Positions 14,777 through 50,652 are shown, counted from the first letter of the stretch. The stretch: 64,000 nucleotides of DNA from Candidatus Doudnabacteria bacterium (GCA_016186915.1 JACPKU010000006.1:12488-76487), one strand, 5' to 3'. The notes: generated from the sequence alone by a model not told the origin. Numbers and translations are program-made.

Positions 14777-14878
14777 CCCGTTAGAAATTTGATAGACCAA
14801 AATTAATCTATAAATATTAAAAATTAGCTCGGAAGTATTTAACGATGTCGCATTATTATTCACTCTGCGTTAGTTATT
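14777..14878. repeat. 13-bp long-range inverted repeat (gcccgttagaaat .. atttctaacgggc) enclosing ~76 nt between rsmH and the ftsL-like gene
   Basis: Read directly; could form a long stem-loop in the rsmH-ftsL intercistronic RNA. Confidence 0.5.
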
Positions 14879-14902
14879 TCTAACGGGCTGTAGGCGGCAA
14901 GA

Positions 14903-15238
14903 ATGTTCAATTTGGCTGCGGTAATCCCGCAAATTACAACAAAACAAAAACCAAAAACTAATATTTCTGTGCTGTATTTGAACTCAGCGATTTTAGTTTT
15001 TATTGTGGTTCTGGGGCTGGCTTATTTGATTCAGCTTAATGCGCTCTCAACCAAGGGGTATGAGATAAGACAACAGCAGGAGGCAATCTCCGGGCTTTCA
15101 ACCGAATACAAACATCTGGAGATGCAAGTTTCAAACATGCAATCAATCAATAGAATTAAGCAGGAAGCGGCCAAATTAAATTTTGTCCCGACTTCGGGTG
15201 TTACTTATATCAATGTTTCTGATTTTGTGTTAAAATAG
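14903..15238 (+). CDS. FtsL-like cell-division membrane protein
   Basis: Small bitopic protein (single TM, coiled-coil-like remainder) in the canonical position between rsmH and ftsI. Confidence 0.6.
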   Translation: MFNLAAVIPQITTKQKPKTNISVLYLNSAILVFIVVLGLAYLIQLNALSTKGYEIRQQQEAISGLSTEYKHLEMQVSNMQSINRIKQEAAKLNFVPTSGVTYINVSDFVLK

Positions 15239-15244
15239 AAAACC

Positions 15245-16984: not shown

Positions 16985-16994
16985 ATTTGAATTT

Positions 16995-26202: not shown

Positions 26203-26931
26203 CTAGCGCACCGCATCCACGCCGTTGCGGAAGATGGCTAGGCCGTCATCACCTCCTCGAAGTTTGTCCACCCGGCGGTCAGGGTGGGGCATTATTCCCA
26301 TGATCAGACCTGTTGCGTCGCAGGCTGCTGCGATGTGTGAGCCGTTCGGACTGGCCGGGTACTCTTTAGTCCCTTCTTCCGTTCCGTACGTGCCGGTAAT
26401 GTGGAGCCGGTCCAAGTCGCCGACGGGTCGTCCTTCGCCGTGCGCTGTAGGGATCACGATCGGCACACCCTCCAGTCCTTTGGTCCATATGCATCGGACC
26501 TTGGGCTCGTGTAGGTATACCGTGACGTTGTACCAGTGTTCGAAGTTGGCTGACTGGTTGAAATCCAGCGCCACAGTCGGCTCTCTTGCTGGGCCTGCGC
26601 CGATGAGTCCGGCAGCGGTCAGGACCTGGAAGCCGTTGCAGATTCCCAGCATGGGAATCCTTCGTTCGAGTACACGACTCAGTTGATCGGAAAGCCGGAG
26701 TCTCAGGTCAATGGCTTGCACTCGGCCAGTGCCGAAGTGATCGCCGTGACCGAATCCGCCCGGCCAGATAATCAGATCCGCCTCATCCAGCCGGCGCCTG
26801 CCCAGGAGGCACAGCTTGAGCGGCAGGACCTCCGGTCTGGCACCGGCAAGTTCAAGGGCGCGTTGGGTTTCCAGGTGGCAGTTCGTGCCCGGAACCCAAG
26901 GGATGATCGCACGAGGCTTGTGGGTTCTCAT
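26203..26931 (-). CDS. purQ: Phosphoribosylformylglycinamidine synthase, glutaminase subunit PurQ-like (class I GATase); high-GC island
   Basis: PGTNCHLE, PGGFGHGDH, GICNGFQVL, HGEGR, NPNGS motifs; start set at MRTHKP, giving an ATGA overlap with the purL stop; local GC ~60%. Confidence 0.85.
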   Translation of the reverse strand: MRTHKPRAIIPWVPGTNCHLETQRALELAGARPEVLPLKLCLLGRRRLDEADLIIWPGGFGHGDHFGTGRVQAIDLRLRLSDQLSRVLERRIPMLGICNGFQVLTAAGLIGAGPAREPTVALDFNQSANFEHWYNVTVYLHEPKVRCIWTKGLEGVPIVIPTAHGEGRPVGDLDRLHITGTYGTEEGTKEYPASPNGSHIAAACDATGLIMGIMPHPDRRVDKLRGGDDGLAIFRNGVDAVR

Positions 26932-29786
26932 GACACTACCTCCCGGAACGTTTTTGCCCACAGCGTGCTTAGTGTTGCGATGTCGGTTGTGAACAGGCGA
27001 TCCCCCGACACGTCGATTACCTGAACGTCGGGGTTGGGCGTGACCCAGCCGATTTCGACTGCGTCGTGGCCGAGCCATTTGTAGTCATCGGTTTTGGTCG
27101 TGAACACGATGCCACACGACATCTCTCCGAAAAGCGAGAAGAGCGAGTCGAAGGGTAGGTTGAGAACAAACCCGAGCCTGGATCCGATGGCCATCTCGAA
27201 CAGTCTTCGGATTAGTCCACCCTCAACCACGGCCGAACGCGAGCCTACCACACCTTTTCGCGCCAGGCTGTGGTATTTCGAAAATCCCTTGACTGCTTGA
27301 GCGAGGTCCACGATGGGCAGTTCGTTTCCGCGTTGTCCGTAGAGATCGAACAGCACTGATCCGCCGAGGTGCTTCTGCATAAGCCCTGGGCAGAACAGAA
27401 TGATGCGTTCTCCGACGTTTCCGAACGCCTTGGGTCGTAGTAGTCGGCCATCAGCCATGCGGCCAACTGTGAGAATATCCAGTGTCAGCGGCGCGTCGAT
27501 TCGTTCTCCTGATTTCGTTACAAACGTGCCGCTTGAACTGTCTTTGCCGGTGATGATAGGAACCCCGAGTTGTTCTGATGCCGGGACATACCCTTCCTTG
27601 ACCAGCTCGATCAGGGCTCGAGCATTGGTGGGGTTGTCCAGCACCTTAGGAGTGTAGACGTTGGCACAGGCTGTGATCTGCTTTGGGTCAAACCCGGCAG
27701 CCACAAGCTTGGTGACTGCTTGCAGGAAGACAAGTCGACCCAAGCCAGCTGGCGAGACCTCGCCGTAGAACTGATTGACCGCGTTACCTACCCCAAGCGC
27801 AAATCTTTTGCCTGGAACAGGTGCGGCGGCAAACAGATCATCTGGCATGTTCTGATCTTCACCACCGAGGTAGGGGATGAATGTGTTTCCTTGGACGGTC
27901 TGGTCGAATCGGTGTGCAGCCCACGATTGGTCGGCGAGATGGAAGTGGCCGAGGTGCTGGACGACAAGGTCTATCCAGTCCTGCTCGCTTGTGGGGATTG
28001 GCGGTTGGAACGGTTTTGGCTTTGGGAGCCGATCAGCCACCTCAATGCGTGGAAGGGGACAGTCATCCGTGAGGAACTCGTATGGCAGGTCCTCTACAAT
28101 CCCTTTTTCCGAAAGGGCCGGGGTTTGGAGCCATTGACGCTGGTCGAGTTCATCGTCAAACGCCACGACGCAGCGTCCGGTGTTGGTAAACATACCGATT
28201 ACGTCTGACGGCACGTCGTATTGGTCCAGAGTGTCTAGGGCCAGATCAAGGCGGCCAGGAGGAACGGCGATAACCATCCGCTCCTGGGATTCAGATAGCC
28301 AGATTTGCCAGCAGGACAGGCCAGCTGTCTTGAGTCGCACCCAAGCCAGGTTGACCCAGATGCCGCAACTCGAACCCATCTCACCAGCAGCAGAAGCAAG
28401 TCCGGCTGCGCCGCAGTCTGTGATTGCTCGGATGCAGCCCTGGTCGCGCAGAATAGGCACTGCTTCCATGAACTTGCGCTGTTCGATTGGGGCGCCGATT
28501 TGGACATGCGCTGCGTCCACGACTGCTGTTTGGTGGGTCATGCTGTCTGAACTGACCGTGGCGCCGTGGATCCCGTCGTTGCCTGTGGGACCACCAATGA
28601 GGAAGATGAAATCCCCAGGCACAGGTGCGCCCTTTTGGGCTTTGTCCTCGGGAATGATCCCGATACTGTGCCCTAGCGCAAACCCTTTCCAGTTGCGAGG
28701 ATGCATGAGGTAGGCAGAACAGGCCATGGGGATGCCCATTGGGTTCGTATATTCGTGTGTTCCGCGGATGGCTTCTTGGATTACTCTGGCCGGGTGGAAA
28801 GCACCTTCTGGCACGTCGTTCCAGTTGGTTCTGGGATCGGTAGTGGCCATGATGGTTGTGCCGCAAACAGGCCAACCTCCGAGCCCAGTTCCGATAACGT
28901 CGCGGATCACCCCGCCGTGCTTGGTCATGATACCGCCGTAAGGGTCGCCAGCGAATGTGGGAGAGATGTGGGTCTCGCCCTTGATGATCACGGCCCAGCC
29001 GCCGAACAGCTCCATCACTCCGCCGTTGTCCACGAAACATGACAGCACCAGCGGGTGGTTGATCTTTTCGGTCGCGGCCCGAATACACGGCAGCAGCCCC
29101 AGAGCCTTGAAGGTTGTGTGGAAGCAGTGGTCAGACCAGGCCGCGGCCGGATGTTCGAGTTCGACATCAGTCAGTGCGCGTCGCAGATTTCGACTGATGT
29201 GCTGTATCGCTAGTAGTTGTGCGTCCGTGAGGTGAGTCATCTTTCGGCTCTTTGCGAGGGTTTTCAGTTCTGCTTTGTCCATGCCCGCGACTGAAAAAAA
29301 CTGGACGGGCAAAGCCTCTGCTTGAGGGATCAGGGTGTCCCATTGCGCTTCGTTGATCACCTGCACTTCTGGGTTGTACAGATGGCGTGCGGCGATTTCC
29401 CGAGCAGCGATTTCGTCCACACCGGAAAATTGATACCGGTGCGCCAAGCGAACCCAGGTAACACCTTGGACACCGACAGCCTGGAAAGCGTGGAGGGCGG
29501 TTGGCATTTCCGGGTCGGTCATTGCCCGTTTGTAAGCCACTTCGATCACTGGTCCGCGGCTTAGATCGAGACGTGAACTAGAGAACGCAGTCTCGATCAC
29601 GGGATTTGCAAAAAGAATCCCGATGCGCGCCAGGTCAGCGATGGAAAGCTCAGGGCCTTCGCAACGGATCACCACCTCAATGTTCACTGACCTGAGTGAC
29701 GGCCAGGAGGCGAGAGCCGCGGCATGCAGTCTTTTGGCGATTGGGTCGTCGACGGTCCGAGTTTTGAAGAGAGTCAAAATTGGCAT
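26928..29786 (-). CDS. purL: PurS-PurL fusion: phosphoribosylformylglycinamidine synthase synthetase subunit with N-terminal PurS-like domain; high-GC island
   Basis: N-terminal FANPVIETAF-type PurS-like module; ETHISPTFAGDPYGGIMTKHGGVIRDVIGTG matches the PurL ETHNHP..PY.GAATG.GG.IRD motif; duplicated PurM-like halves; start set at the ATG preceded by ggaga (the track start at 29798 is a TTG). Confidence 0.85.
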   Translation of the reverse strand: MPILTLFKTRTVDDPIAKRLHAAALASWPSLRSVNIEVVIRCEGPELSIADLARIGILFANPVIETAFSSSRLDLSRGPVIEVAYKRAMTDPEMPTALHAFQAVGVQGVTWVRLAHRYQFSGVDEIAAREIAARHLYNPEVQVINEAQWDTLIPQAEALPVQFFSVAGMDKAELKTLAKSRKMTHLTDAQLLAIQHISRNLRRALTDVELEHPAAAWSDHCFHTTFKALGLLPCIRAATEKINHPLVLSCFVDNGGVMELFGGWAVIIKGETHISPTFAGDPYGGIMTKHGGVIRDVIGTGLGGWPVCGTTIMATTDPRTNWNDVPEGAFHPARVIQEAIRGTHEYTNPMGIPMACSAYLMHPRNWKGFALGHSIGIIPEDKAQKGAPVPGDFIFLIGGPTGNDGIHGATVSSDSMTHQTAVVDAAHVQIGAPIEQRKFMEAVPILRDQGCIRAITDCGAAGLASAAGEMGSSCGIWVNLAWVRLKTAGLSCWQIWLSESQERMVIAVPPGRLDLALDTLDQYDVPSDVIGMFTNTGRCVVAFDDELDQRQWLQTPALSEKGIVEDLPYEFLTDDCPLPRIEVADRLPKPKPFQPPIPTSEQDWIDLVVQHLGHFHLADQSWAAHRFDQTVQGNTFIPYLGGEDQNMPDDLFAAAPVPGKRFALGVGNAVNQFYGEVSPAGLGRLVFLQAVTKLVAAGFDPKQITACANVYTPKVLDNPTNARALIELVKEGYVPASEQLGVPIITGKDSSSGTFVTKSGERIDAPLTLDILTVGRMADGRLLRPKAFGNVGERIILFCPGLMQKHLGGSVLFDLYGQRGNELPIVDLAQAVKGFSKYHSLARKGVVGSRSAVVEGGLIRRLFEMAIGSRLGFVLNLPFDSLFSLFGEMSCGIVFTTKTDDYKWLGHDAVEIGWVTPNPDVQVIDVSGDRLFTTDIATLSTLWAKTFREVVS

Positions 29787-29902
29787 CAGGTTCTCCAATA
29801 TTGAAAGAAAGATCGTTTTCCTCCTACGAACTTACAAGAACTTCAAGGACGCTCGCCCTTGACTTTCCAGTCTACCATAGTTTGATGGTTGGAGAAAATA
29901 AT

Positions 29903-35909: not shown

Positions 35910-36752
35910 ATGCCACAAAAGATTATAATTCTTGGAAGCAAAGGAAACCTGGGCGGAAAACTTATGGAGGTTTATGCTGACTTAAGGCCCGCTGGCTGGG
36001 ATCGAGAAGAGCTGGATGTGACGGATGAGGAGCAAGTAAAGCCCAAGCTCAAAGAATTTAAACCCGATTTAGTGATCAATTGCACTGCTTATAATGATGT
36101 GGATGGCGCAGAAGAGGATCGGGCAGTGGCAGAAGCGATAAACGGGTTGGCACCTGGCTATCTCGCTGCGGTGTGCGCGGAGATGGACGCTGTTTTTGTG
36201 CATTTTAGCACTGGCCAAGTTTTTGCCGGAGACAATAGTCAGGGGTATAATGAAGACGACGTCCCAAGCCCGCTAAACACCTATGGCAGGTCTAAGCTGA
36301 TGGGGGAGATGGAAGTTGAAAAAAACACTGAAAAATATTATTTGATTCGCACCGCCTGGCTTTATGGGGCTGGCCCGTCGTCGGGCAAGAAGAAGAGTTT
36401 TGTGGATATAATGCTCGATTTGGCGAAAAAGGACAGGCCGATAAAAGGCGTAGATGATGAGTTTGGCAACCCAACCTATAGCTTGGATTTGGCGCAAGCC
36501 GTGCGTGCGATGATAGAAGAGAAAAAGCCGTTTGGAGTTTATCACCTGGTAAACGAAGGCGTGGCTTCGCGTTTGGATTGGATGAAAGAAATATTCATAA
36601 TCAAAGAAATGGAAGTGGGGATTGTGCCAGTAAGTCGTGAGGAGTTTGCAGGCAAACGGAAAGCCAAGCGCCCGCAATACGAAGTTTTGAACAACACGAA
36701 ATTTATCAAGCTTCGGCCGTGGACCGAGGCACTGAAGGAATATTTGAAATGA
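35910..36752 (+). CDS. rfbD: dTDP-4-dehydrorhamnose reductase
   Basis: KIIILGSKGNLG, YGRSKLMGE, RmlD-typical length and order; start set at MPQKIII. Confidence 0.85.
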   Translation: MPQKIIILGSKGNLGGKLMEVYADLRPAGWDREELDVTDEEQVKPKLKEFKPDLVINCTAYNDVDGAEEDRAVAEAINGLAPGYLAAVCAEMDAVFVHFSTGQVFAGDNSQGYNEDDVPSPLNTYGRSKLMGEMEVEKNTEKYYLIRTAWLYGAGPSSGKKKSFVDIMLDLAKKDRPIKGVDDEFGNPTYSLDLAQAVRAMIEEKKPFGVYHLVNEGVASRLDWMKEIFIIKEMEVGIVPVSREEFAGKRKAKRPQYEVLNNTKFIKLRPWTEALKEYLK

Positions 36753-37483
36753 AAGGTGTGATTCTCGCAGGTGGGAAGGCTACAAGATTAAGACCCTTAA
36801 CTTTCGTTACGAACAAACACTTGTTGCCAGTCTATAACAAACCGATGATCTTTTATCCGCTTGAAGCCATGGCTAAAGCTGGGATTAAAGATGTGTTAAT
36901 GATCACAGGTCCTGATCATGCCGGGCATTTTTTAAATTTGCTTCGATCCGGAGGTGAATTTGGACTGAATCTAACATATGAGATTCAAGATGAAGCAGGG
37001 GGACTGTCTCATGCAGTAAGACTTGCAGAATCGTTTGCAGATAACCAAAAACTTCTTGTGATTTTAGGGGATAATATATTTGAGCATGATTTATCCGATG
37101 CTGTAAAAGATTTTGAAAGCCAAGACAGAGGAGCAAGAATTTTTGCTAAAGAGATGGATGAAGCAGGGCAGTATGGTGTAGTTGAGATAGACAGTGAAGG
37201 CACGGTTTTATCAATTGAAGAAAAGCCAAAAAAGCCAAAAAGTAAATTGGCCCAGACAGGAATTTATATGTATGATAATCAAGTGTTTGATTTGATAAAA
37301 GAACTTAAGCCTTCCACAAGAGGCGAGCTGGAAATTACTGATTTAAATAATTTATATTTGAAACAAGGAATCTTAAGTTGTGAAGTTATGAAAGGCTGGT
37401 GGGTTGACGCGGGAACTTCTTTTGATGAATTGCTGCGCGCCAGCAATCAAGTCGCAAAACTTACAAAACAAAAAGATAAATAA
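36749..37483 (+). CDS. rfbA: Glucose-1-phosphate thymidylyltransferase-like sugar nucleotidyltransferase
   Basis: MKGVILAGGKATRLRPLT..; ATGA overlap with the rmlD stop. Confidence 0.85.
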   Translation: MKGVILAGGKATRLRPLTFVTNKHLLPVYNKPMIFYPLEAMAKAGIKDVLMITGPDHAGHFLNLLRSGGEFGLNLTYEIQDEAGGLSHAVRLAESFADNQKLLVILGDNIFEHDLSDAVKDFESQDRGARIFAKEMDEAGQYGVVEIDSEGTVLSIEEKPKKPKSKLAQTGIYMYDNQVFDLIKELKPSTRGELEITDLNNLYLKQGILSCEVMKGWWVDAGTSFDELLRASNQVAKLTKQKDK

Positions 37484-38410: not shown

Positions 38411-38983
38411 CTATTCAACGATGATGGGGATCGTATACGACGCCGCGGTTTGACTATCCGGCCAGTAAGGAATGAAGTCAAAAGAAGCCACCGCCTGGAA
38501 GCTAACTTCTTTTGACTCACCCGAAGGTATATTACCTGTATCAACTACAGGGCTTCTGAAATCTAATCCATGATAGGCCACGTTTTTTGTATCCACTCGG
38601 AAGACGAGGGTGACCTTCGTATCTTTGGCAACGGTGATACTTTGGGGACTGGCCTGCAGGTCATTTGCCAATAGAATCACGATTACTGGGTTTGGAGTAG
38701 AGGAAGGAGCGGGTTGTTCTTCCGCAGGCTCCAATGTCGGCGGGAGCGTATCCAGTCCCGAGTCAGATTCAGCAGGCAGGAGGACGGAAGTTTCAGGTTT
38801 ATCCGCGGGGTTCGGCTCTTCTTCTTTTCCTGTTTTATCAAGAGGCGCTGCGCCTTGTTTTGTTATGCCCGCATTTTCGGAAAGCGGCTGATTGATATTT
38901 TCCGAAGAAGGGTTCTGGACAATAAAAATGACCAGCCCGATAATAGCGATTGCAACAATGATCAAAACAATAAATTTTGCCAT
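38411..38983 (-). CDS. Membrane-anchored protein with Pro/Glu-rich linker and C-terminal beta-sandwich (cupredoxin-like, no obvious Cu ligands) domain
   Basis: N-terminal TM; ITVAKDTKVTLVFRVDTKNVAYHGLDF..SFQAVASFDFIPYWP. Confidence 0.35.
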   Translation of the reverse strand: MAKFIVLIIVAIAIIGLVIFIVQNPSSENINQPLSENAGITKQGAAPLDKTGKEEEPNPADKPETSVLLPAESDSGLDTLPPTLEPAEEQPAPSSTPNPVIVILLANDLQASPQSITVAKDTKVTLVFRVDTKNVAYHGLDFRSPVVDTGNIPSGESKEVSFQAVASFDFIPYWPDSQTAASYTIPIIVE

Positions 38984-38991
38984 GTGTTTAG

Positions 38992-39906
38992 TTAGTACAA
39001 GACAAACAGGCTCGTCACCACAATCAAAAGAAAGATAACGGTGTGCGGGGATGCGTGCATATTTATTCGTTTAATCTTGGCACGATGAATGATAATAGAA
39101 TCAATAATGAGAAACATCGCGTAAATCCCAGCCAAAATAGCTACAATTATCCGGAAGAAATTTAAAAATTGAGCCTCCCTGGAAACTGGTATTTGCAAAT
39201 CAGCCGGAGTAGTTATAGATTCTGTTTCAATTTGTTCAGTGTTACTTGCTTCCGAAGGAATGATTGGCTGTTCGATCGGTTGTTTAGTGTCTTGTTGAGC
39301 AGTTGGCGGAGACGAGGTTGGTGGCGCGGTTGCTTGTGCTATTGCAGGCGTTGGATTTTGATTGAGAAGCGTCCCGAACAGGCTGGTAATCAGAATGCTG
39401 TTGTGATTTGGTTCGAATAGTCCGAAAATGGCGGCTAGACCTTGGTCCTGAAATTTTTCATTGACGATATTTTCTCGGTGAGTTGGGCTGTTCATCCAGG
39501 CACGAACAACCGCGTCACCAGAAACAAAATCCATGGCGAGATTTTCGCCGAGTGTTAGGTATGGCCTGTAGCCTTGAACCTCAATAGTTGGCCAGACGTA
39601 ACTGCCATCTGGATTGAGATGGGCAAAATAACTTCGGTCTAACATGTCGTTTGATTTAATGCCGGCCGCAGAAACCAGGCGCTGATCACTCAAAAGGGCT
39701 GGAACAAACCTTTGCGTCCTTTCACTATTGATACTTGTCATAAGATCTTGAGCATCAATACTGGACTGAGCGTAAGTCACCGCGCTAGGCCCTAAAATTC
39801 TCAATGACCAGATAATTACCATAAAAACCGCCAAAGCAATAGGCTTGGTCAGCACTGGCTGGTAGTCATTTTCTTCGCTGGCAATTAGATAGTGTTTTAG
39901 TTTCAT
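38992..39906 (-). CDS. CAP/SCP-domain protein (second paralogue) with Thr/Pro-rich linker and C-terminal TM anchors
   Basis: SINSERTQ..SYFAH..GENLA..SPTHRENI CAP motifs. Confidence 0.7.
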   Translation of the reverse strand: MKLKHYLIASEENDYQPVLTKPIALAVFMVIIWSLRILGPSAVTYAQSSIDAQDLMTSINSERTQRFVPALLSDQRLVSAAGIKSNDMLDRSYFAHLNPDGSYVWPTIEVQGYRPYLTLGENLAMDFVSGDAVVRAWMNSPTHRENIVNEKFQDQGLAAIFGLFEPNHNSILITSLFGTLLNQNPTPAIAQATAPPTSSPPTAQQDTKQPIEQPIIPSEASNTEQIETESITTPADLQIPVSREAQFLNFFRIIVAILAGIYAMFLIIDSIIIHRAKIKRINMHASPHTVIFLLIVVTSLFVLY

Positions 39907-40014
39907 TTAGCTAGGTTATATCTATATTTTAGCGGTTTTTTTAAGCCTTGACAAATAGGGCTTGATGTGCTAAGATTGCGTGTTATAATTATATATTAAA
40001 TTCATTAAATTCAA

Positions 40015-41103
40015 ATGCAGTCATATTTATCCAATCCAATAAACACGCGTTCCCCCAAGGAAATTCATAGAATTCTCAAACTTGGCGATAATGTTGTGTT
40101 GCCTCTGCAGGCGGAACCTATGCCACGAAAGCCAAGCAAATTGATTTTGGCAGGCAGTTGGCTTTGGAGAAAAATTAAGCCGCATACTCCTAAGCTTTTT
40201 TATCCTGTGGTATTTATCGTGGCTTTTGCCTTTTTTTACACGCTATTCAATTTTTCTTCCTTGGTCAGCCAGGTGGACGCGGTGTTTAACAACCAATCGC
40301 AGGATGAAGTGATTTTGGGCGAAGATATCGGCGACTACTACGAATGGATTAGCCGCTATTACTTTGCCGTGAGCGACAAGAAGTTGCTTTCAGCCACCAA
40401 TGATATTGACGAGGACGGTCTTGCTAATTATGACGAGTTTGTTTTACAGACCAATCCCACTGTTCTTGACTCTGACAACGACGGCGTAAGCGACGGACTG
40501 GAGGTTATTAACCAAACCAACCCTTGGGGCCAAGGCAGCATGACCCAAGACCAGCTCAAATCAAGCGAGCCGCTTGATTTGATTATGATTAACAACCGAA
40601 TCAGTTTCAACATCGCAAATCATCAATCAAACGCTTCAAACAATCCGAAGATCGATTATGATTTGGAAAAACACGGCACGCTTTCAATCCCCAAACTTAA
40701 TCTGCAAGTGCCAATCGTCTGGACCAAAGATCCGGCAAGTTTCAGCGAAGACCTAAAGAATGGTGTGGTGCATTATCCAGGCACCGCGTTGCCCGGGGAG
40801 CCGGGAGTGGTATATATTGCCGGCCACTCTTCTGATTATATTTGGAACAACCATCCATATACTCGCGTCTTTGCCAAGCTGAATTTTCTAGAACCAGGCG
40901 ATGACGTCTTTGTGGATGTTACTGGAGCAGACGGACAAATTCGAAACTTTCGTTATGTGGTGACTGAAGAAAATGTATACAACCCAGACGATCAAGCACA
41001 GTTTATTGACGATTCGACCGCCAAGCTCAATCTTTCCACCTGTTGGCCGATTGGAACCCAGAGAGATAGATACGTGGTTTCTGCTGTTTTGGAAGGGATA
41101 TAA
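40015..41103 (+). CDS. Sortase-family transpeptidase with N-terminal TM and thrombospondin-type-3-like Ca-binding repeats
   Basis: Catalytic His in YIAGHS and Cys in LNLSTCWP (TLxTC-type) plus conserved R in RDRYVV; DIDEDGLANYDE..DSDNDGVSDGLE acidic DxDxDG repeats; alternative start at MPRKPS (40120). Confidence 0.8.
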   Translation: MQSYLSNPINTRSPKEIHRILKLGDNVVLPLQAEPMPRKPSKLILAGSWLWRKIKPHTPKLFYPVVFIVAFAFFYTLFNFSSLVSQVDAVFNNQSQDEVILGEDIGDYYEWISRYYFAVSDKKLLSATNDIDEDGLANYDEFVLQTNPTVLDSDNDGVSDGLEVINQTNPWGQGSMTQDQLKSSEPLDLIMINNRISFNIANHQSNASNNPKIDYDLEKHGTLSIPKLNLQVPIVWTKDPASFSEDLKNGVVHYPGTALPGEPGVVYIAGHSSDYIWNNHPYTRVFAKLNFLEPGDDVFVDVTGADGQIRNFRYVVTEENVYNPDDQAQFIDDSTAKLNLSTCWPIGTQRDRYVVSAVLEGI

Positions 41104-41202
41104 CCTTGACAATGGTGTTGACAATTGGCAAGATTTTTGCTAGCATTGTCAGTTAATAACTAAGCATTAATTAACATAAGCATTAATTAACACATTCAAT
41201 AT

Positions 41203-44200
41203 ATGAATTTCATAGCTGCCAGAAAAAATAGATATTTTATTAAAAGCAAAACCGCTAAGTTTGTCGGTTTGGGCTTCGTGTTGGCTCTAACCGTTTCTTT
41301 TATTGGATTTTCACTGGCTAACCACAACAGCGGCACTGGAATCCCGGTGGACACTGGCTGGATTGACGCTTCTAGATTTGTTGGAAGCGTGGAGTTTGAT
41401 TGTGGCCAGACCGTGGGTTCAGTCTGGGGGCAAAGAGGTGACCAATTCACGATTCCAGGACATGTTTTAAATATTCCGGAAGGTTCATATACGATTGATA
41501 TCCGCGCTCATTATGGGTTTTATGAAGCAGACCCACAAGCGCCGCAAACCAATGAAACTATGAGAGTAAGCACCTCTGTTGCTTCCAGACAAATCCCTGA
41601 TTTGAATGGCCATGGCGGATCTAGACCTGACAGAGACAACTGTGATCAGATCAACGCTAATTTTAGAATTTACACCAACATTACCCGCAGTCCGATTAAC
41701 TACCAGGACGGTGGGATTAGATTTGCCGGCTTAACCTCAGATTCGCAGAGTATCAGCATTCAGGCGGTGCGGGTGCATGGCACTTCAACTCCTCCGCCCC
41801 CGCCTCCGCCGCAGCCGTGCGTGCCAGTGGGTTTGATTATGCCGCAAAGCGGGCAGGTATTTGGGGCCAATGAGACCAACCCTGCTTTCCAGTGGCAGGG
41901 GACCAACCGGACCTTCTATATCCTGGACATTACCGAGGATCCGAACTTTTCTTGGTGGTGGAATAATGGCAGTGGCGCTGGCGGCGGTATTCAAATTACT
42001 TCTGCTAATTTTTCGGACGTCACCAATACTTTCTACTCCCAAGGGCACCCCGCTCCGGGATTGGCTCAAGCCGGCAAAACTTATTACTGGCGAGTGTTTG
42101 CTTACAATACGGACGATCCGGGCGCTGGCTGTCACTCAGTCGTGAGGTCGTTCTCTTTGCAATCAACTCCGCCGCCGCCCCCGCCTCCTCCTCAAAAAGC
42201 CCAAATTACCTTAGTCAAAGAAGTGATCAACAACAACGGTGGCAACAAGCAGCCCTCAGATTTCGCCTTACATATCGCGGGGCACACGTTAACCAGTGGC
42301 CAATCTGTCGAACTTAACCCCGGCAATTATCAAGCTACGGAAACTCAGCAAGCCGGTTATGCCTTGTTAGGTTGGCGAGGCGCTTGTGATGGTAGCGGTA
42401 GCGTAACCTTGCAAGCCGGTCAGAACGTGACTTGTGTAGTAACCAATGATGACCAAGCCCAGCCTACTGTTTCGTTGTCTTTAGTGAAAAATGTGCGAAA
42501 CGTGACCCAAGGGCAAACCACATTTGTAGATTCAGTTTCCGCCCAGCCAAACGAACAGGTAGAGTTCAGAATCCAAGTGGCGGCTTCTGGCAACACCAGC
42601 GCCCAAAACGTCGTGGTGACTGATACTCTGCCAAATAACTTTAATCTTAGTTCCGGTAGTTTAACCAACAATCTAGGCAACATGTCAGCCGGCAGCACTC
42701 AAATCATAACCTTGAGCGCTACTGCTGCCTCGGCCTTTAACTTCCCAATCGGTTCGTCCACTTGGATCAATACCGCTACAGCTACCGCCTCTAACGCCAA
42801 CACGGTTTCAGACACTGCTCACGTGGTAGTTAACCGCCAAATTACCGGTACCCCCAGCCTGACCATTGACAAAACTGTCCGAAACGTCACAGCCGGCCAA
42901 GCAATATTTAGCAATTCTGTATCAGCCAACCCGCAAGATCAAGTGGAATTCAAAGTTGTTGTGAGCAACGTCGGACAGGCCACAGCCAACAATGTGGTGG
43001 TGACTGATACTCTGCCAAATAACTTTAATCTTAGTTCTGGCAGTTTAACCAACAATCTAGGCAACATGTCAGCCGGCAGCACTCAAATCATAACCTTGAG
43101 CGCCACTGCTGCCTCTGCCTCTAACTTCCCCATCGGTTCGTCCACTTGGACCAATACTGCTACGGCTACCGCTTCTAATACCAATACGGTTTCTGATACC
43201 GCCAATGTGATTGTAGAAAGAGACGGACCACCTGGCGATGCTCAACTAAGTATCACCAAAGAAGTCAGAAACGTTACTCAAGGAGTAGCTTTCTTTTCTA
43301 AATCCGCATCAGCTCAGCCAAACGAACAAGTCGAGTTTAGAATCCGCGTTCGATCAACTGGTCAAACTACAGCCAACAATGTGAACCTGACTGATATTTT
43401 GCCAAATAACTTTGTATTGAACTTTGCCCAGACGGGCGCAGGAGTCAGCGGCTCCAACACCCAGTTTAGTTTGGGCAATATGCCGACGAACACTGAAAGA
43501 ACTCTGTCCTTGTTTGTGACTGCGGCTTCAGCCGCCAATTTCCCAATCGGCACCAGCACTCACACCAACACAGCCACTGCCACAGCCTCTAACGCCAATT
43601 CCGTCTCTGACAATGCTTCAGTCGTGATTAACCGGGACGGCGGAGGCAATGGCAACCCATTCTTAGCAATCACGAAAGAAGTAAGAAATCTCACTGACAA
43701 CACGGGCTATTCTCATTCAGTAACCGCGGATGACAGCGATCGCGTAGAGTTTAGAATTGTTGTGCGAAACACCGGCAGCTCAAACTCTACTGCTACCAAC
43801 GTTCGCGTGACGGATTTCTTGCCGGCCAACCTGGAATTTGTTGCCAGTACGTTAAGGATTGACAGCAACACGCAGTTTAGCAATAACCTGCTTGGCAATA
43901 TTTTCTTAGGCAATCTGTCTGCGAATCAGAGCAAAACTATTACCTTTGAAGCAAGGGTAAATGCCAACTTCAACAATACGCTGATAAACACTGCCACTGC
44001 TTTCTCGGACAACACCTCGCCAGTCAATGACAGCGCCAGCGTGTTCGTCTCGCGCGTGGTTGGCGGAAATATTGATCTGGTCTTGAGCAAGTCCGCGTAT
44101 AACTTAACTCAAGGACGGGACGCTACCGCGGTAACCGCGCGTGCAGGCGATCAGATTGAATACATTTTGCGCGTAGAAAATCGCGGCAACGCCACTGCCA

Positions 44201-44583
44201 CCAACTTCGTCATTGAGGACAGCATTGCGGACATTCTGGAACTGGCTGACCTGCTTAGCTATTCTGGCGCCACATTTGACTCAAGCGCTCGGGTACTTCG
44301 ATGGCCGTCTGAAAATATTGGGGCCGGGCAAACTGTAGAGAAAAGATTCTCTGTCCGGGTAAAAAGCCCTGTTCCTGGCGGCACTGATCTGGTTATGACT
44401 AATGTCTACGGCAACACGGTCAGAGTACCGGTTGGCACCCCGCCTTCTGTTCCTCCTCCCGTGTATCCTCCGTACAAAGCTCCGCCCACCGGCCCTGCCA
44501 CCACTTTCAGTTTGATCTTGGCTGGCTTGACTGTCGCGGGAGCGTTCGGGATTAAAAAAATTAAGCAAGCCTCGAGAGCATGA
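41203..44583 (+). CDS. Large cell-surface protein: N-terminal TM, two fibronectin/Ig-like modules separated by polyPro linkers, about 6 DUF11 repeat domains, C-terminal sorting-signal-like tail
   Basis: Repeated L(S/T)(L/I)xK.VRNVTQG..F..SVSAQPNEQVEFRI.V...G...A.NV.VTD.LP modules (DUF11 pattern); C-terminal KAPPTGPATT + hydrophobic + KKIKQASRA. Confidence 0.8.
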   Translation: MNFIAARKNRYFIKSKTAKFVGLGFVLALTVSFIGFSLANHNSGTGIPVDTGWIDASRFVGSVEFDCGQTVGSVWGQRGDQFTIPGHVLNIPEGSYTIDIRAHYGFYEADPQAPQTNETMRVSTSVASRQIPDLNGHGGSRPDRDNCDQINANFRIYTNITRSPINYQDGGIRFAGLTSDSQSISIQAVRVHGTSTPPPPPPPQPCVPVGLIMPQSGQVFGANETNPAFQWQGTNRTFYILDITEDPNFSWWWNNGSGAGGGIQITSANFSDVTNTFYSQGHPAPGLAQAGKTYYWRVFAYNTDDPGAGCHSVVRSFSLQSTPPPPPPPPQKAQITLVKEVINNNGGNKQPSDFALHIAGHTLTSGQSVELNPGNYQATETQQAGYALLGWRGACDGSGSVTLQAGQNVTCVVTNDDQAQPTVSLSLVKNVRNVTQGQTTFVDSVSAQPNEQVEFRIQVAASGNTSAQNVVVTDTLPNNFNLSSGSLTNNLGNMSAGSTQIITLSATAASAFNFPIGSSTWINTATATASNANTVSDTAHVVVNRQITGTPSLTIDKTVRNVTAGQAIFSNSVSANPQDQVEFKVVVSNVGQATANNVVVTDTLPNNFNLSSGSLTNNLGNMSAGSTQIITLSATAASASNFPIGSSTWTNTATATASNTNTVSDTANVIVERDGPPGDAQLSITKEVRNVTQGVAFFSKSASAQPNEQVEFRIRVRSTGQTTANNVNLTDILPNNFVLNFAQTGAGVSGSNTQFSLGNMPTNTERTLSLFVTAASAANFPIGTSTHTNTATATASNANSVSDNASVVINRDGGGNGNPFLAITKEVRNLTDNTGYSHSVTADDSDRVEFRIVVRNTGSSNSTATNVRVTDFLPANLEFVASTLRIDSNTQFSNNLLGNIFLGNLSANQSKTITFEARVNANFNNTLINTATAFSDNTSPVNDSASVFVSRVVGGNIDLVLSKSAYNLTQGRDATAVTARAGDQIEYILRVENRGNATATNFVIEDSIADILELADLLSYSGATFDSSARVLRWPSENIGAGQTVEKRFSVRVKSPVPGGTDLVMTNVYGNTVRVPVGTPPSVPPPVYPPYKAPPTGPATTFSLILAGLTVAGAFGIKKIKQASRA
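42607..43215 (+). repeat. Intragenic ~200-bp near-identical (~90%) tandem duplication inside the DUF11 gene
   Basis: gtggtgactgatactctgccaaataactttaatcttagtt..caacatgtcagccggcagcactcaaatcataaccttgagcgc occurs at ~42613 and ~42997. Confidence 0.8.
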
Positions 44584-45194
44584 ATTTGCGAACCATTCTG
44601 ATCATTGGAGTTTTGCTGGCGATTTTAGGAATCGTGTTCCTGATTGACCGCGCCAGACAGGATGATGTCAGCGACCTCTCAAACATCATCACTTCGATAA
44701 TCGCTGAAAATCAAACTCAAGGACAAGACGCAGTCGCCACCGAAGCACGAAGCCAAGATTTTATTGTCTATACCTTGACGGCTGAAAATCCGACCAAAAG
44801 AGCGGTTGAGGGTTATGAGTTTGAAGTAAACATCGCTGACATTACCGAGTTGGCAACTTTAGTAGACGCAACCGGTGCCAATTACAACTCAGACAAAAAT
44901 TCGCTCACGTGGGCGCCACTCTCCGTCCCGGCCAATGATAAGGCAGACAAACAGTTTACTGTCCGAGTGAAGGATGATTTACCGGCTGATTCAGACCTCG
45001 TGATGACTGCGCAGTTCAACAACGAAGTCAAAGTGAAAGTGAGCAATGATCGAATTGCGGGTGAGGGGATTAATATTGAGCAGAAAGACCAAACGCCGTT
45101 CGTTGCGCCTACAGTTGGTTTGCCGGCTACAATCAGTTTGTTTTTTGCCGGATTGGCGACACTCGCGTTTTCTTTGGTGAGAATTAAGGTTTAA
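44580..45194 (+). CDS. Small DUF11-like surface protein, paralogue of the C-terminal module of the 41203 protein, with the same sorting-signal-like tail
   Basis: IADITELATLVDATGANYNSDKNSLTW..QFTVRVKDD compared with IADILELADLLSYSGATFDSSARVLRW..RFSVRVKSP; tail VAPTVGLPAT + hydrophobic + RIKV; ATGA overlap with the upstream gene. Confidence 0.6.
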   Translation: MNLRTILIIGVLLAILGIVFLIDRARQDDVSDLSNIITSIIAENQTQGQDAVATEARSQDFIVYTLTAENPTKRAVEGYEFEVNIADITELATLVDATGANYNSDKNSLTWAPLSVPANDKADKQFTVRVKDDLPADSDLVMTAQFNNEVKVKVSNDRIAGEGINIEQKDQTPFVAPTVGLPATISLFFAGLATLAFSLVRIKV

Positions 45195-45206: not shown

Positions 45207-45240
45207 AAAAACCCCGCAGCCTTGCGGGGTTTTTTGTTTT
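45207..45240 (+). terminator. Intrinsic terminator aaaa-accccgca-gcct-tgcggggt-ttttt
   Basis: 8-bp GC stem plus T-run. Confidence 0.8.
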
Positions 45241-45288
45241 TGGCTATGATGGGTTTATAGAAATCAAAACAAAACCGAGCATCCGGTT

Positions 45289-46821: not shown

Positions 46822-46934
46822 TCGAACACTGTGATTTCTGAACTGAAATAAACTCCCTGATTATTATAGGAAATTAACACAGAGTAACAATCTAAGTATT
46901 GGCGCGTCTTGTTTTTTGTCAACCAAACACAGAA

Positions 46935-48935
46935 ATGTTAATCAATTTGAAAACAAAGCTCTTATCTTTGGTCGTTATTTTGCTGGTTTTTTTATTTGCA
47001 GGAACCTTTGAGCATAACGCAACCAGCGTAAAGATAATTTTTGCGCTGAAGGAGGGGGTGGAGGTACAAGACATTGTTGTTGATTACCAACTTTTAGACA
47101 ATCAACTGCTTTTTGCTGCCAGCAAAGGATTAGCGCCAACATTTACCGCCGCAGTTAAATCCGGATTGTTGGGCAAATTAAACAGCGATAAGCGGCTGTT
47201 ATACGCTGAAGCGGACACGAAAGTTTTAGCCAGCAAGATCACGACCAATGACAGTTTTTTCACGACTGACGACAATAACCAAAACAGCCAGTGGTATCTG
47301 CCGAAGATAAAAATTCCTGACGCCTGGGAGTTTTCCAAGGGCAGTAGCTCGGTTAAAGTGGCAATAGTTGATACGGGGATTCACGCTTCTCACATTGAAC
47401 TCAATGACGGACGGGTGATTGGTGGATATAACTCGATTACCAAAGAAACGATTTTGCCCCAGGCCAGCTCTGACGACAACGGTCATGGTACCGCGGTGGC
47501 GGGCATCATCGGTGCGATTCCGAATAATGGACGAGGACTGAGCGGGATTAACTGGAACATCAGCCTTATGCCGATCAAGGCTTTAGATGCGGCAGGCAAC
47601 GGCTTCATCTCTTCAGTGGCTTCTGGGATTGTGAGGGCCGTTGATGAGGGCGCGGATATTATTAATCTAAGTTTGGGTGGACCCGGTTTTGGCGCTGATG
47701 CCACGCTGAACAGCGCGGTAAAATACGCATTCGACCGAGGCGTTCTGGTGGTGGCGGCGGCCGGAAACGATCTGGCAGAATTTGGCTCGAATCTGGACAT
47801 CAACCCCGTGTATCCAATTTGTTCTGATTTGGGACAGAACATGGTTTTAGGTGTAGCAGCCACGGATGTTACAGATCAAAAAGCTGATTTTTCCAACTTT
47901 GGCATTAACTGCGTGGATTTGTCCGCCCCAGGAAAAAGGATTTTGACCACGGCTTTTATTCCATCTGACCCGGCAAATAATATTTTGATTTACGGCTCGG
48001 GAACTTCCTTGGCCACCCCGCTGGTTTCCGGAGTCGCCGCGCTTTTGAAAGCCAAAAATCCCACTCTCACCAACATTCAGCTAAGAGATATCCTGATAAA
48101 GTCTGTGGATGATATTAGCAATCTTAACAAGACTAATTGTTTAGGCACCTCTTGCAATGGCTTTTTGGGTTCAGGGCGCCTGAATGCTCTCAAGGCTTTA
48201 ACGCCCACGCCGTTTTCGGACGGAGACTTGATTAGAGAGTCCGGAACGAACCGCATATTTCTTTTAACAGACGGCACAAAACATTATGTCTCACAGTTTG
48301 TGTTTGACCAAAAAGGGTTTAGCCTGGCCAATGTGGTAAACGAAACCAGTGGCCAGCTGAGCACCTATACCGAGGGAGCGCCGCTGTTGCCGGTTGAGGG
48401 AACCCTGATTAAGGCCGAGAATAATCCCACCGTTTACATTATCCATGAGAATGTTAAACGCGCTTTAACTTTCTTAGTATTTAATTCCAGAAAGTTTAGC
48501 TTTGCTGATGTCCGCTCCCTGCCCAGCCCGGATGTGGCTTTGTTTCCTGAAGGAGACTGGTTTTGGCCGCCGGACGGCACTATGGTCCTGGTTTCTAGTG
48601 ATCCAACAGTCTATGTAATGGATCAGGAAGTGAGAAGGCCGGTTACATTTTTGGTTTTCAATTTGCGCAAACTTTCATTTGCCAATGTCGTGACAGTCAG
48701 CCCTGACGAACTGACGCATATTCCAGTCCCCGAAGATTCATACTGGCTGGCGCCGCCGGAAGGAACTTTAGTTAAGTCTGTCTCGGACCCGACAGTTTAT
48801 ACTATTGAAAACGCGAGCAGGCGAGGATTAACTGGGGTTGCTTTTACTAACCGAGGGTTGAGCTTCGGGGCAATTCACGTTCTCCCGCAAGCGGAATTGG
48901 AAGTAATTAAACCAGGAGATCCAATCATTGAATAA
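46935..48935 (+). CDS. Secreted subtilisin-like serine protease (S8) with three C-terminal ~55-aa repeats
   Basis: Catalytic triad in VAIVDTGI (Asp), HGTAVAGII (His), GTSLATPLVSGVAAL (Ser); signal peptide from the ATG at 46935 (track start 46899 is a TTG). Confidence 0.85.
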   Translation: MLINLKTKLLSLVVILLVFLFAGTFEHNATSVKIIFALKEGVEVQDIVVDYQLLDNQLLFAASKGLAPTFTAAVKSGLLGKLNSDKRLLYAEADTKVLASKITTNDSFFTTDDNNQNSQWYLPKIKIPDAWEFSKGSSSVKVAIVDTGIHASHIELNDGRVIGGYNSITKETILPQASSDDNGHGTAVAGIIGAIPNNGRGLSGINWNISLMPIKALDAAGNGFISSVASGIVRAVDEGADIINLSLGGPGFGADATLNSAVKYAFDRGVLVVAAAGNDLAEFGSNLDINPVYPICSDLGQNMVLGVAATDVTDQKADFSNFGINCVDLSAPGKRILTTAFIPSDPANNILIYGSGTSLATPLVSGVAALLKAKNPTLTNIQLRDILIKSVDDISNLNKTNCLGTSCNGFLGSGRLNALKALTPTPFSDGDLIRESGTNRIFLLTDGTKHYVSQFVFDQKGFSLANVVNETSGQLSTYTEGAPLLPVEGTLIKAENNPTVYIIHENVKRALTFLVFNSRKFSFADVRSLPSPDVALFPEGDWFWPPDGTMVLVSSDPTVYVMDQEVRRPVTFLVFNLRKLSFANVVTVSPDELTHIPVPEDSYWLAPPEGTLVKSVSDPTVYTIENASRRGLTGVAFTNRGLSFGAIHVLPQAELEVIKPGDPIIE

Positions 48936-50652
48936 AATTTTTCAAATATCAAATAACAAATATCAAATAACAATCATCGTTCTAGTCCTAGCGTTAATGA
49001 TAGGTCCGCTGACGGTGTTTGCGCAAAGTGCAATTGATCCTGCTTTCAATCCCGGACTTTTGATTACTGATACGGCTTTTTCTGATAAAGGCACCTTTGG
49101 TTCCGCTGAAGGAATCCAACAGTTTTTTGAACAACGTGGCTCTGTCTTGGCCCGCACGGACCAAAGCTTTTTACTGAAACTGAAAGAGCCGGACTATGCG
49201 ACCAAGGAAGCCTTGGAGGACCCCAACCCACAGTTAGGCAGATTGAGGTCAGCAGCCGAATTAATCTACGACGCGACGCAAAAGCACGGCTTGAATCCGC
49301 AAGTTATCTTGGTACTGCTGCAGAAAGAACAGAGTCTCGTAGACGGCAATTTTACCAGCGATGATCGATTGCAAAGAGCTTTGGATCGAGCACTAGGCTT
49401 TGGGTGCCCGGACAATGGCGGGTGCGGTGACATATTTTTAAGTTTCTACCGTCAGCTGTTTGGATCATTTGATTCGCAAGGAAGCCGGTGGCTTGGCGCT
49501 GCTGCGTCTTTGATGCGTTCATTTGAGACGGCGGGCGGGAGAGGTCCGAGAGTTGATTCTGCAAACCAAGTTTTTGGCAGCCCGACCGTCCGAACTTCGC
49601 AGGTCGGGGATACCATAGTTTTGGACAACACGACAGGCGGATATAGCGGAGTTCAGCCAACCCAGAGTGTTACCATTGGCAACAAGGCTACCGCCGCACT
49701 TTATCGCTACACACCGCATGTGTTTAACGGGAATTATAATTTTTGGCGATTTTACAGCAAGTGGTTTAAGTATCCGAACGGCACAGTGATTCAATTAAGC
49801 GGCGAAGCGGTGCGATACGTAATTGATAATGGAACCAAAAGATTATTTTCTGACTTCGTGGCGGTTCAGCGAAAGTTGAAAACCGACACAGTCGTAACTT
49901 TGTCTCAGTCAGAGTTCAGCGAGTATTTGACAGAGAAGCCGCTGCCTCCTTTGGAAGATACTTTGCTCAAGGGCGAGGCGGATGCCACGGTGTTTGTTGT
50001 TAAAGTTAACAAAAAGCGGCCGATCTCTGGAGCTGTATTTTCGCAGCGCGGTCTGTCATTTGCCAAGGTGGTGAGTTTGCCGCAAGCGGAAGTTGATGGC
50101 TATGAATTGGGGGCGCACTTGCCGCCCAAAGACGGCACGCTGATTATCGCTGAATCTGACCCAACAGTTTATTTGATTGAGAACGGCGTGAAACGGCCGA
50201 TTACCGGTGATGTATTTACGGCACGCAAGTTTTCTTTCAAGAATTTAATGCGGCTTACTGATCCGGAATTGGCCAGTCTTCCTACCGGCGATTTTGTACG
50301 GCCTCCTGACAGTACCGCACTCCAGCTCAAAGGCGATACGGGAATTTATTGGTTCAAGGACGGGCAGAAACGATTTGTCTCTGCATTTGTTTACAAACAG
50401 CGCGGTGTTAATGCTTTCCCGCATATCATTATTGGGTCAGAAGAATTTGAGCAGGTTCCGACGGCCACGCCTTTTCCGCCCCGCGATGGCACAGTGATCA
50501 AGGGTGATGTAAGCACCGCAATTTATAGGATTGAGAACGGTGTAAAAAGAATGTTTACGGCAGCATCTTATGCCGTTGCCAGACACCCCGTGGCCACGGT
50601 CCTGCCGCAAGCCGAAGTCGACAGTTTTGCCGAAGGTGCCGTGATCGAATAA
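48928..50652 (+). CDS. Secreted hypothetical protein with N-terminal unknown domain and 4-5 copies of the same ~55-aa repeat found in the S8 protease
   Basis: Repeat consensus G(T)L(I/V)K..SDPTVY.IENGVKR.I....F..R.(L/F)SF..V..L...E; apparent TTG start overlapping the S8 stop with a good signal peptide. Confidence 0.55.
   Translation: MNKIFQISNNKYQITIIVLVLALMIGPLTVFAQSAIDPAFNPGLLITDTAFSDKGTFGSAEGIQQFFEQRGSVLARTDQSFLLKLKEPDYATKEALEDPNPQLGRLRSAAELIYDATQKHGLNPQVILVLLQKEQSLVDGNFTSDDRLQRALDRALGFGCPDNGGCGDIFLSFYRQLFGSFDSQGSRWLGAAASLMRSFETAGGRGPRVDSANQVFGSPTVRTSQVGDTIVLDNTTGGYSGVQPTQSVTIGNKATAALYRYTPHVFNGNYNFWRFYSKWFKYPNGTVIQLSGEAVRYVIDNGTKRLFSDFVAVQRKLKTDTVVTLSQSEFSEYLTEKPLPPLEDTLLKGEADATVFVVKVNKKRPISGAVFSQRGLSFAKVVSLPQAEVDGYELGAHLPPKDGTLIIAESDPTVYLIENGVKRPITGDVFTARKFSFKNLMRLTDPELASLPTGDFVRPPDSTALQLKGDTGIYWFKDGQKRFVSAFVYKQRGVNAFPHIIIGSEEFEQVPTATPFPPRDGTVIKGDVSTAIYRIENGVKRMFTAASYAVARHPVATVLPQAEVDSFAEGAVIE

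Follow-up and report, generated by a model that had tools for sequence, protein, structure and literature searches.

A sortase operon of Candidatus Doudnabacteria with fibrillar-adhesin-like substrates and a candidate Ala-P4 variant of the LPXTG sorting signal

A 64,000-nt stretch of DNA from Candidatus Doudnabacteria bacterium (GCA_016186915.1, JACPKU010000006.1:12488-76487; hereafter the window) carries, at positions 40015–45194, three same-strand open reading frames (ORFs) of 362, 1126 and 204 aa, exactly where a first-pass annotation, made from the sequence alone, had placed them. Our reading, to which we assign a probability of roughly 0.7, is that the first of these genes encodes a dedicated sortase that covalently anchors the product of the second, a fibrillar adhesin, to the cell wall by means of an LPXTG-variant sorting signal with Ala at position P4. 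The observations that carry this reading are direct ones: gene order, domain content, catalytic residues, conservation of the motif in homologues and linkage of the sortase to its candidate substrates. The three genes and their key elements are as follows (in brackets, the basis of the assignment; AF2, AlphaFold2).

40015–41103, + strand: sortase, 362 aa (ORF, Pfam, NCBIfam, alignment, AF2 model, fold match)
40675–41091, + strand: predicted catalytic beta-barrel of the sortase, aa 221–359 (Pfam, alignment, Foldseek)
40825–40827, + strand: His271 of the sortase (alignment)
41041–41043, + strand: Cys343 of the sortase (alignment)
41068–41070, + strand: Arg352 of the sortase (alignment)
41203–44583, + strand: fibrillar-adhesin-like large protein, 1126 aa (ORF, Pfam, NCBIfam)
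44473–44493, + strand: candidate sorting motif of the large protein, Y1091-K-A-P-P-T-G1097 (fits the family logo)
44506–44580, + strand: hydrophobic segment F1102–I1117 of the large protein and basic tail KKIKQASRA (sequence)
44580–45194, + strand: small substrate-like protein, 204 aa (ORF, paralogy, model, fold match)
45105–45119, + strand: candidate motif of the small protein, A176-P-T-V-G180 (Pro and Gly invariant in the family)
45120–45191, + strand: hydrophobic segment L181–V200 of the small protein and short basic tail RIKV (sequence, model)

Both candidate substrates end, as the first-pass annotation had noticed, in a tail with the tripartite layout of a sorting signal: a short motif, some 16–20 uncharged residues and a basic tail at the extreme C-terminus. 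The large protein ends in ...VYPPYKAPPTG-PATT-FSLILAGLTVAGAFGI-KKIKQASRA and the small one in ...TPFVAPTVG-LPATISLFFAGLATLAFSLV-RIKV. A scan of the ORFs of the 64-kb window yielded no third ORF with a motif-bearing tail, the others being unrelated proteins with plain transmembrane (TM) segments. For comparison we used 80 genome loci with relatives of the sortase plus the two closest relatives, from metagenome-assembled genomes (MAGs) of Doudnabacteria and Patescibacteria and amounting to about 1.3 Mb, from which we derived a logo of 45 large substrates (42 loci) and a set of 22 small proteins. The large substrates follow the pattern G-x-[F38/Y6]-[V/I/T]-[A43/S2]-P45-[K35]-T45-G45-[A30], after which come some 17 uncharged residues and a tail rich in Arg and Lys; P6 is Phe or Tyr in 44 of the 45, and P2 is Lys in 35. 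The small proteins all keep Pro and Gly and have Ala or Ser at P4; two positions further upstream stands an aromatic residue, and P1 is Thr in 12, Ser in seven, Ala in one and Val in one of the 22 sequences. Leu is found at P4 in none of the 45 large substrates or 22 small proteins, and tails of the type L[PA]xT[GAN] are absent from the ~1.3 Mb of loci. Judged by these alignments, the motif of the clade reads [F/Y]-x-[A/S]-P-x-T-G, an LPXTG whose P4 is Ala and whose P6 is aromatic, and by analogy the scissile bond of the large protein is predicted to be T1096/G1097. The motif as originally described, A-P-(P/T)-(T/V)-G-(x)-PAT, has thus survived in part: its A-P..G portion is kept in homologues, while the Val at P1 is peculiar to the window’s small protein and ‘PAT’ is not conserved, the residues after Gly varying (Ala, Ser or Pro, then Asp, Thr and others) across the 45 large and 22 small homologues, so that we rejected it as a part of the motif. 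A profile of 39 aligned tails retrieved a single 60-aa match from a collection of 5.8 billion proteins, which is uninformative as to other families. As peptides spanning the motif, Abz-GAFVAPKTGADT-Dnp and Abz-PPYKAPPTGPAT-Dnp are proposed as sortase substrates.

The tails keep close company with the sortase. Of the 57 loci with 4 kb or more of sequence downstream of the sortase gene, 40 have a substrate tail downstream and on the same strand, and in three further loci a large, open-ended ORF runs off the locus; no tail was found at any other position in the ~1.3 Mb. Since all of the ~57 tails lie downstream of a sortase and on its strand, chance can be excluded as an explanation. One sortase is seen per locus, and the operon consists of it, one to three large substrates (700–1850 aa) and one small one. 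The seven large substrates tested by Pfam (release 2025; the NCBIfam library used here is that of June 2026) are all of the DUF11/CLIPPER kind, with stalk domains of SpaA_2 or CarboxypepD_reg type, and their N-terminal domains differ between lineages, as expected of adhesin tips. The proposal of a dedicated sortase–substrate pair with a lineage-specific, non-LPXTG motif is therefore borne out by the linkage and by the logo. Of the two findings that the first-pass annotation had named as speaking against it, plain TM tails with no conserved motif and a sortase unlinked to DUF11 genes, neither was made: the motif is strongly conserved among homologues, and the relatives show the linkage.

The identity of the enzyme as a sortase is well supported. 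Residues 223–359 match Pfam Sortase (PF04203) with 77.5 bits (cutoff 26.6), and the score for TIGR01076, 40.9 bits, is above the cutoff of 39.35. The catalytic triad that had been read from the sequence holds up: His271, Cys343 and Arg352 are invariant across an alignment of 31 homologues and line up with the GH, TC and R of the class C sortase 8t28. The catalytic domain bears two signatures of the clade, GHSSDY.W and LSTCWPIG. The AF2 model (mean predicted local distance difference test score, pLDDT, 81; about 75–95 in the catalytic region) shows a well-ordered helical region with acidic repeats at residues 96–203, of which the helices at 178–203 precede the barrel, and the predicted fold, together with its matches in the PDB, corresponds to the eight-stranded beta-barrel of sortases. 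Foldseek returned 117 PDB matches at E<=1e-3; the top ones are all sortases, of classes C, D, E and A (E ~1e-11 to 1e-10). Among the fold matches are C. perfringens SrtD and T. fusca SrtE. On this basis the protein is predicted to act as a transpeptidase on the sorting signal. A TM segment at about aa 62–84 is followed by an extracytoplasmic helical stalk and then by the catalytic domain; it is preceded by a cytoplasmic motif, E16-I17...L21...G24 (x-E-I-H-R-L-L-K-L-G), which is invariant in the 31 homologues. A public NCBI copy of the identical sortase (327 aa, from a Candidatus Doudnabacteria MAG that also encodes the identical small protein, which puts the window among the Patescibacteria) begins at Met36, which removes this motif; its conservation in the 31 homologues indicates that the start of the 362-aa version is the real one.

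While the family is clear, the class is not. None of the NCBIfam models for sortase classes A–F or for the GN group reached its own cutoff (score/cutoff: SrtD 69.2/140, class D 61.7/165, class E 45.9/160, class C 44.8/160, class F 24.2/166, GN 23.8/158), and a profile search of PDB sequences found class C and class D sortases at E ~1e-8. We also considered assigning the class by the nearest PDB or NCBIfam model and rejected this: the result is ambiguous between C, D and E, and accordingly none was assigned. The PGAP labels of relatives disagree as well (‘sortase’, ‘class D’, ‘class E’). By profile models, we treat the enzyme as a sortase-family member of no defined class. As for the size of the family, 108 hits at E<=1e-30 fall into roughly a few dozen clusters at 50% identity, in a search of a representative library that was contaminated by giant TSP3-repeat proteins. 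Four contigs with a sortase of the CPR (candidate phyla radiation) type are labelled Acidobacteriaceae, Verrucomicrobiia, Binatia or Micavibrio (L004, L006, L011 and L066); they are probably mis-binned Patescibacteria.

The acidic DxDxDG repeats that had been noted in the N-terminal region of the sortase are thrombospondin-type-3 (TSP3) repeats of the bacterial type.

40393–40524, + strand: two TSP3 acidic repeats, aa 127–170, DIDEDGLANYDE and DSDNDGVSDGLE (Pfam, alignment)

Pfam TSP3_bac (PF18884) matches one of the two, at residues 152–170, with 34.9 bits (cutoff 25, E 1.3e-8). The other, D130-x-D-x-D-G, is supported by conservation: in the 31 homologues both acidic loops, D130-x-D-x-D-G-L-x-N-x-D-E and D152-S-D-x-D-G-x-x-D-G, are invariant, the residues in question being D130, D132, D134, G135, D152, S153, G157, D160 and G161. 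The region is modelled with pLDDT >90 and is 43–51% identical to giant TSP3-repeat proteins. The repeats are confined to the closer subclade of sortases (loci L001–L019 and L023), and sortases of ~30% identity that lack them are still paired with FVAPKTG substrates. The idea that TSP3 determines the unusual motif is ruled out by these TSP3-less sortases with the same APKTG substrates; the repeats are a subclade-specific stalk that is not tied to the motif. By sequence, the two repeats would bind Ca and act as a stalk that separates the catalytic domain from the membrane.

The large protein is laid out as a fibrillar adhesin: a signal peptide (assigned by eye from an N-terminal basic and hydrophobic stretch), two tip domains (aa ~41–320) with no family assignment, a SpaA_2 prealbumin-like domain (Pfam, aa 331–412), five to six CLIPPER/DUF11-type repeats (aa 424–1076) and the C-terminal sorting signal. 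The proline linkers seen in the first pass are runs of seven Pro (aa 197–203) and eight Pro (aa 323–330) between the domains of the N-terminal part. DUF11 (PF01345) matches in five stretches with 159.6 bits, accompanied by DUF7507 and DUF7619, and TIGR01451 scores 136.6 bits, in agreement with the initial description of a DUF11-repeat protein; precomputed Pfam labels already use the name CLIPPER. DUF11 has been renamed CLIPPER, a stalk domain of fibrillar adhesins with an intramolecular isopeptide bond (Protein Sci 2025, PMC12617251; PDB 9IFR). In repeats 1–4 of the window’s protein a first-strand Lys, the Asp of ‘TD.LP’ and a late Asn in ‘NTA’ are spaced, at the level of pattern, like Lys715/Asp748/Asn806 of 9IFR; the last repeat departs from this pattern. 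A search of PDB sequences gave no match to the large protein, so that the isopeptide residues were judged by pattern alone, and the Ig-like stalk domains of CLIPPER and SpaA type are probably isopeptide-stabilised. The internal duplication, first estimated at about 200 bp, is slightly longer.

42596–43214, + strand: internal duplication, 42596–42830 against 42980–43214 (235 nt, 89% identical; spacing 384 nt, one domain repeat)

The duplicated stretches correspond to the neighbouring CLIPPER repeats 1 and 2, which on their sequence appear to have been duplicated or homogenised recently.

The small protein is, as had been proposed, paralogous to the large one, whose last domain it matches (40% identity over 116 aa, E 1e-21), and has no match in Pfam or NCBIfam. 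Its model consists of an N-terminal TM helix (aa 3–29), one Ig-like, CLIPPER-like beta-sandwich (aa 37–154), a disordered linker and a C-terminal TM helix (aa 181–203). Fold searches gave weak and generic beta-sandwich matches only (CBM2, the CLIPPER domain 9IFR at a TM-score of 0.58, SpaD and AgI/II), and no specific function could be taken from them. At the position where CLIPPER has its first-strand Lys, the small protein has Glu. Its APTVG, with Val at P1, is unique among the 22 family members; the nearest relative, with a sortase 74% identical, has YVAPNTG in its small protein. Since the identical Val-bearing protein is found on seven contigs, a sequencing error is unlikely. We read the 204-aa protein as another, minimal substrate of this sortase, or possibly as one crippled in this genome by the Val at P1: it may be uncleavable, which would leave a TM helix at each end. 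It might serve as a tether between membrane and wall, or as an acceptor for the large protein.

The layout of the three genes suggests that they are expressed together.

39948–39989, + strand: two overlapping sigma-70-like promoter matches just 5' of the sortase start (10/12 each; consensus match only)
41118–41146, + strand: promoter-like match within the 99 nt that separate the sortase gene from the adhesin gene (consensus match only)
45207–45244, + strand: intrinsic-terminator-like hairpin with a 12-bp stem (6 GC pairs) and a T-run, 13 nt past the stop of the small gene

The ATG of the small gene overlaps the stop of the large one (ATGA), and with the promoter-like sites and the terminator this makes the three genes look like one unit, whose end the hairpin and T-run, to judge by the sequence, mark. 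The window also contains, at 13844–18260 (+), genes for RsmH, an FtsI/SpoVD-like class B penicillin-binding protein and MurF, a part of a dcw-type cluster (the MurF model scores 280.8, slightly below its cutoff of 288.6). As an FtsI-like penicillin-binding protein and MurF are encoded, peptidoglycan is presumably made, and a murein wall is to be expected as the anchor.

We propose that Sec would export the large protein by way of its N-terminal signal peptide and that the C-terminal hydrophobic segment and basic tail would keep it in the membrane, so exposing Y-K-A-P-P-T-G on the membrane's outer face. The sortase, with Cys343, His271 and Arg352, would cut between Thr and Gly to give a thioacyl intermediate, and the large protein would then be transferred to an amine of a peptidoglycan precursor. 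What results would be a fibrillar adhesin fixed to the wall, its variable tip carried by a stalk of Ig domains of the CLIPPER/SpaA type. Several points weigh against this picture. Adjacency is not universal: 14 of the 57 loci have no such substrate nearby, mostly those of the most distant sortases (GHSSGY), and the linkage figures cover ±8 kb around the sortase, so that co-occurrence is known at that range only. No LPXTG-anchor model (TIGR01167 or PF00746) matches either protein at E<=0.01, and the Val at P1 of the window’s small protein is atypical of sortase substrates. Cleavage at the proposed bond, linkage to the wall and the nature of the acceptor are predictions drawn from sequence, as are Ca binding and the isopeptide bonds, and the cell envelope of CPR bacteria is poorly understood.

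Three other explanations of the operon were weighed. One has the enzyme as a pilus polymerase of class C type, which would join large proteins head to tail, or large to small, via Lys, with the 204-aa protein as the basal subunit at the wall. The class C pilus sortases that are numerous among the best PDB hits, by sequence and by fold, suit it, as do the arrangement of one sortase with one to three large substrates and a small one, reminiscent of pilus islands, the SpaA_2 and CnaA/CnaB-type domains typical of pilins, and the translational coupling of the small protein to the large one. However, class D and class E structures are matched as well as class C ones, and the class C score in NCBIfam, less than a third of its cutoff (44.8 against 160), is below that of class D. 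The pilin motif [YFW]PK[NDGS] is found in 0 of 57 substrates (a divergent Lys motif being possible), the substrates, with their lengths of 700–1850 aa and variable tips, are unlike pilins, and there is a single sortase per locus. We therefore consider a pilus unlikely, and of the first-pass suggestion of ‘a pilus or adhesin system’ the adhesin half is the probable one, the missing YPKN-like motif, the variable tips and the substrate length speaking against the other.

It is a little less likely still that the tails are uncleaved membrane anchors in which F-x-A-P-K-T-G is a juxtamembrane structural or interaction element, the sortase acting on unlinked proteins. That no anchor-domain model matches the tails, that Ser, Ala or Val is tolerated at P1 of the small proteins and that 14 sortase loci lack such neighbours would all fit. 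Against this, the invariant residues are the very ones that are essential in LPXTG-type signals (Pro, Thr and Gly), at the canonical distance from a hydrophobic segment with a basic tail after it; strict same-strand adjacency is kept for sortases down to ~30% identity; and the ~1.3 Mb of loci offer no alternative LPXTG-like substrates. Finally, the adhesin could be transferred to an acceptor other than peptidoglycan: a lipid, an S-layer, a secondary polymer made by the adjacent rhamnose and glycosyltransferase genes, or a protein. CPR envelopes are atypical (PMC5220378). The operon lies amid polysaccharide genes (RmlA-like at 36719–37483, epimerases, and glycosyltransferase and flippase genes at 55–60 kb); peptidoglycan synthesis genes are, however, present in the window, and we know of no characterised sortase that uses anything other than an amine of peptidoglycan or a pilin Lys. 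This makes a non-peptidoglycan acceptor very unlikely, the least probable of the three. Covalent anchoring of the adhesin to the wall by the adjacent sortase thus remains our preferred reading. A bolder version of it, which we put forward tentatively and at somewhat less than even odds, is that the STCWP/GHSS[DN]Y sortases of Doudnabacteria-like Patescibacteria constitute a new natural class with the native signal [F/Y]-x-A-P-x-T-G, the first specific for Ala at P4, and that their CLIPPER substrates are covalently wall-anchored fibres of episymbionts.

To judge from its neighbours, the sortase unit sits in a cell-envelope neighbourhood: the genes around it encode sugar-nucleotide enzymes, a CAP/YkwD-family protein, an S8 protease and glycosyltransferases. 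The CAP/YkwD-family protein is encoded divergently at 38992–39906 (-) and has a C-terminal pair of TM segments; next to it, at 38411–38983 (-), lies the gene for a Pro-rich membrane protein of 190 aa, and both are kept upstream of the sortase in four other loci (L081, L082, L005 and L014). On the other side, 46899–50652 (+) encodes an S8 subtilase with a long C-terminal repeat region and then a 574-aa protein composed of modules that resemble the subtilase repeats (‘...TVY.I..G.KR.I....F..RG.SF...’). Genes like these two follow the sortase operon in L081, and in many distant loci they follow it together with a GT2-like gene. Several distant sortase loci have a gene for a protein of 260–500 aa directly 3' of the sortase (L020 3809–5017, L022 9002–10228, L031 8864–10048, L070 10003–11094 and L072 9464–10579), a gene that is absent from the window; the protein has a TM segment near its C-terminus, then a tail rich in Gly and Pro that ends in PRGP, RPRRP or similar, and has no Pfam match. 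Elsewhere in the window, 7230–10232 (+) encodes a 1000-aa protein with a GH5 cellulase domain (aa 73–228) and a C-terminal T4SS_pilin domain (PF18895, aa 914–983), at a local GC content of 0.53 as compared to ~0.44 for the window; and 26203–29798 (-) holds purQ/purL-like FGAM synthase genes (GATase_5; AIRS/AIRS_C/FGAR-AT linker), whose GC content of 0.56–0.57 is well over the window average and which may be of foreign origin.

How does the system compare with known ones? With class A LPXTG sorting, as by S. aureus SrtA, it shares the tripartite signal (P3 Pro, P1 Thr, P1' Gly), a membrane-anchored transpeptidase with Cys, His and Arg, and long surface-adhesin substrates. It differs in the signal (Ala or Ser at P4 in 45 of 45 large substrates, an aromatic P6 and a preference for Lys at P2), in the enzyme (GHSSDY.W and LSTCWP in place of the usual GHR and TLxTC, with no fitting class A–F model, an extra cytoplasmic motif and, in this subclade, a TSP3 stalk) and in the host, an ultra-small CPR bacterium. 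The class D and class E sortases of Actinobacteria and Bacilli, which recognise LPNTA and LAXTG, are the nearest in NCBIfam, although their scores (62–69 bits for D, 46 for E) are far under the cutoffs of 140–165. They are precedents for one-residue changes of the pentapeptide as the signal of a class; the position that varies is P4 here (Leu to Ala), P3 in class E and P2/P1' in class D.

Ala in the motif's first position is also accepted by two engineered SrtA enzymes, F40 and cW11. APKTG is a peptide used with F40 (PMC9126251), and the APATG of histone H3 is a target of engineered SrtA (PMC8248031, PMC11638967). Those are, however, laboratory-evolved S. aureus enzymes of low activity, whereas here APxTG appears to be native, with a specificity that would be shared by the clade. 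In the literature searched, APKTG or APXTG occurs in the context of sortases only for engineered S. aureus SrtA, though the motif may still be noted elsewhere. The operon would thus be a natural source of an APxTG specificity that elsewhere, in that literature, was reached by directed evolution of SrtA (PMC9126251, PMC8248031) and, if the bolder version is true, could serve as an orthogonal ligase, ready for use on native APxTG sites, for instance the APATG of histone H3.

The substrates resemble CLIPPER adhesins (PMC12617251) in having a signal peptide and tips, a stalk of tandem DUF11, DUF7507 and DUF7619 domains, and a C-terminal sorting domain; in contrast to those, the sorting domain here matches none that Pfam recognises, and the isopeptide bonds are proposed from the residue pattern. 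A sortase and several Ig-domain substrates in one operon, SpaA_2 among the domains, are also features of Gram-positive pili of the SpaA/RrgB type, from which the present system is set apart by the absence of a pilin Lys motif, by very large substrates with variable tips and by its single sortase. Within the CPR, sortases are common in genomes (PMC6744442) and their presence has merely been noted (PMC4736985, PMC5220378); the literature searched did not define their substrates or recognition motifs, and a paper on CPR pili deals with an unrelated donor-strand system (bioRxiv 10.64898/2026.03.03.709456).

If true, the bolder version of our reading would have CLIPPER fibres attach ultra-small episymbionts to surfaces or hosts. 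There would be a gain for annotation as well: pipelines are inconsistent in the class they name for these sortases, truncate the N-terminus of the present one and miss the tails as sorting signals. Class-specific pentapeptide variants such as LAXTG, LPNTA and NPQTN are well established, and for this reason we do not rate the system as categorically new. What we do rate as new is the combination of a CPR-specific sortase clade, a signal with Ala at P4 and CLIPPER adhesins as substrates: a triple of enzyme, motif and substrate for one CPR lineage, and with it a set of candidate covalently anchored adhesins in organisms that depend on attachment.

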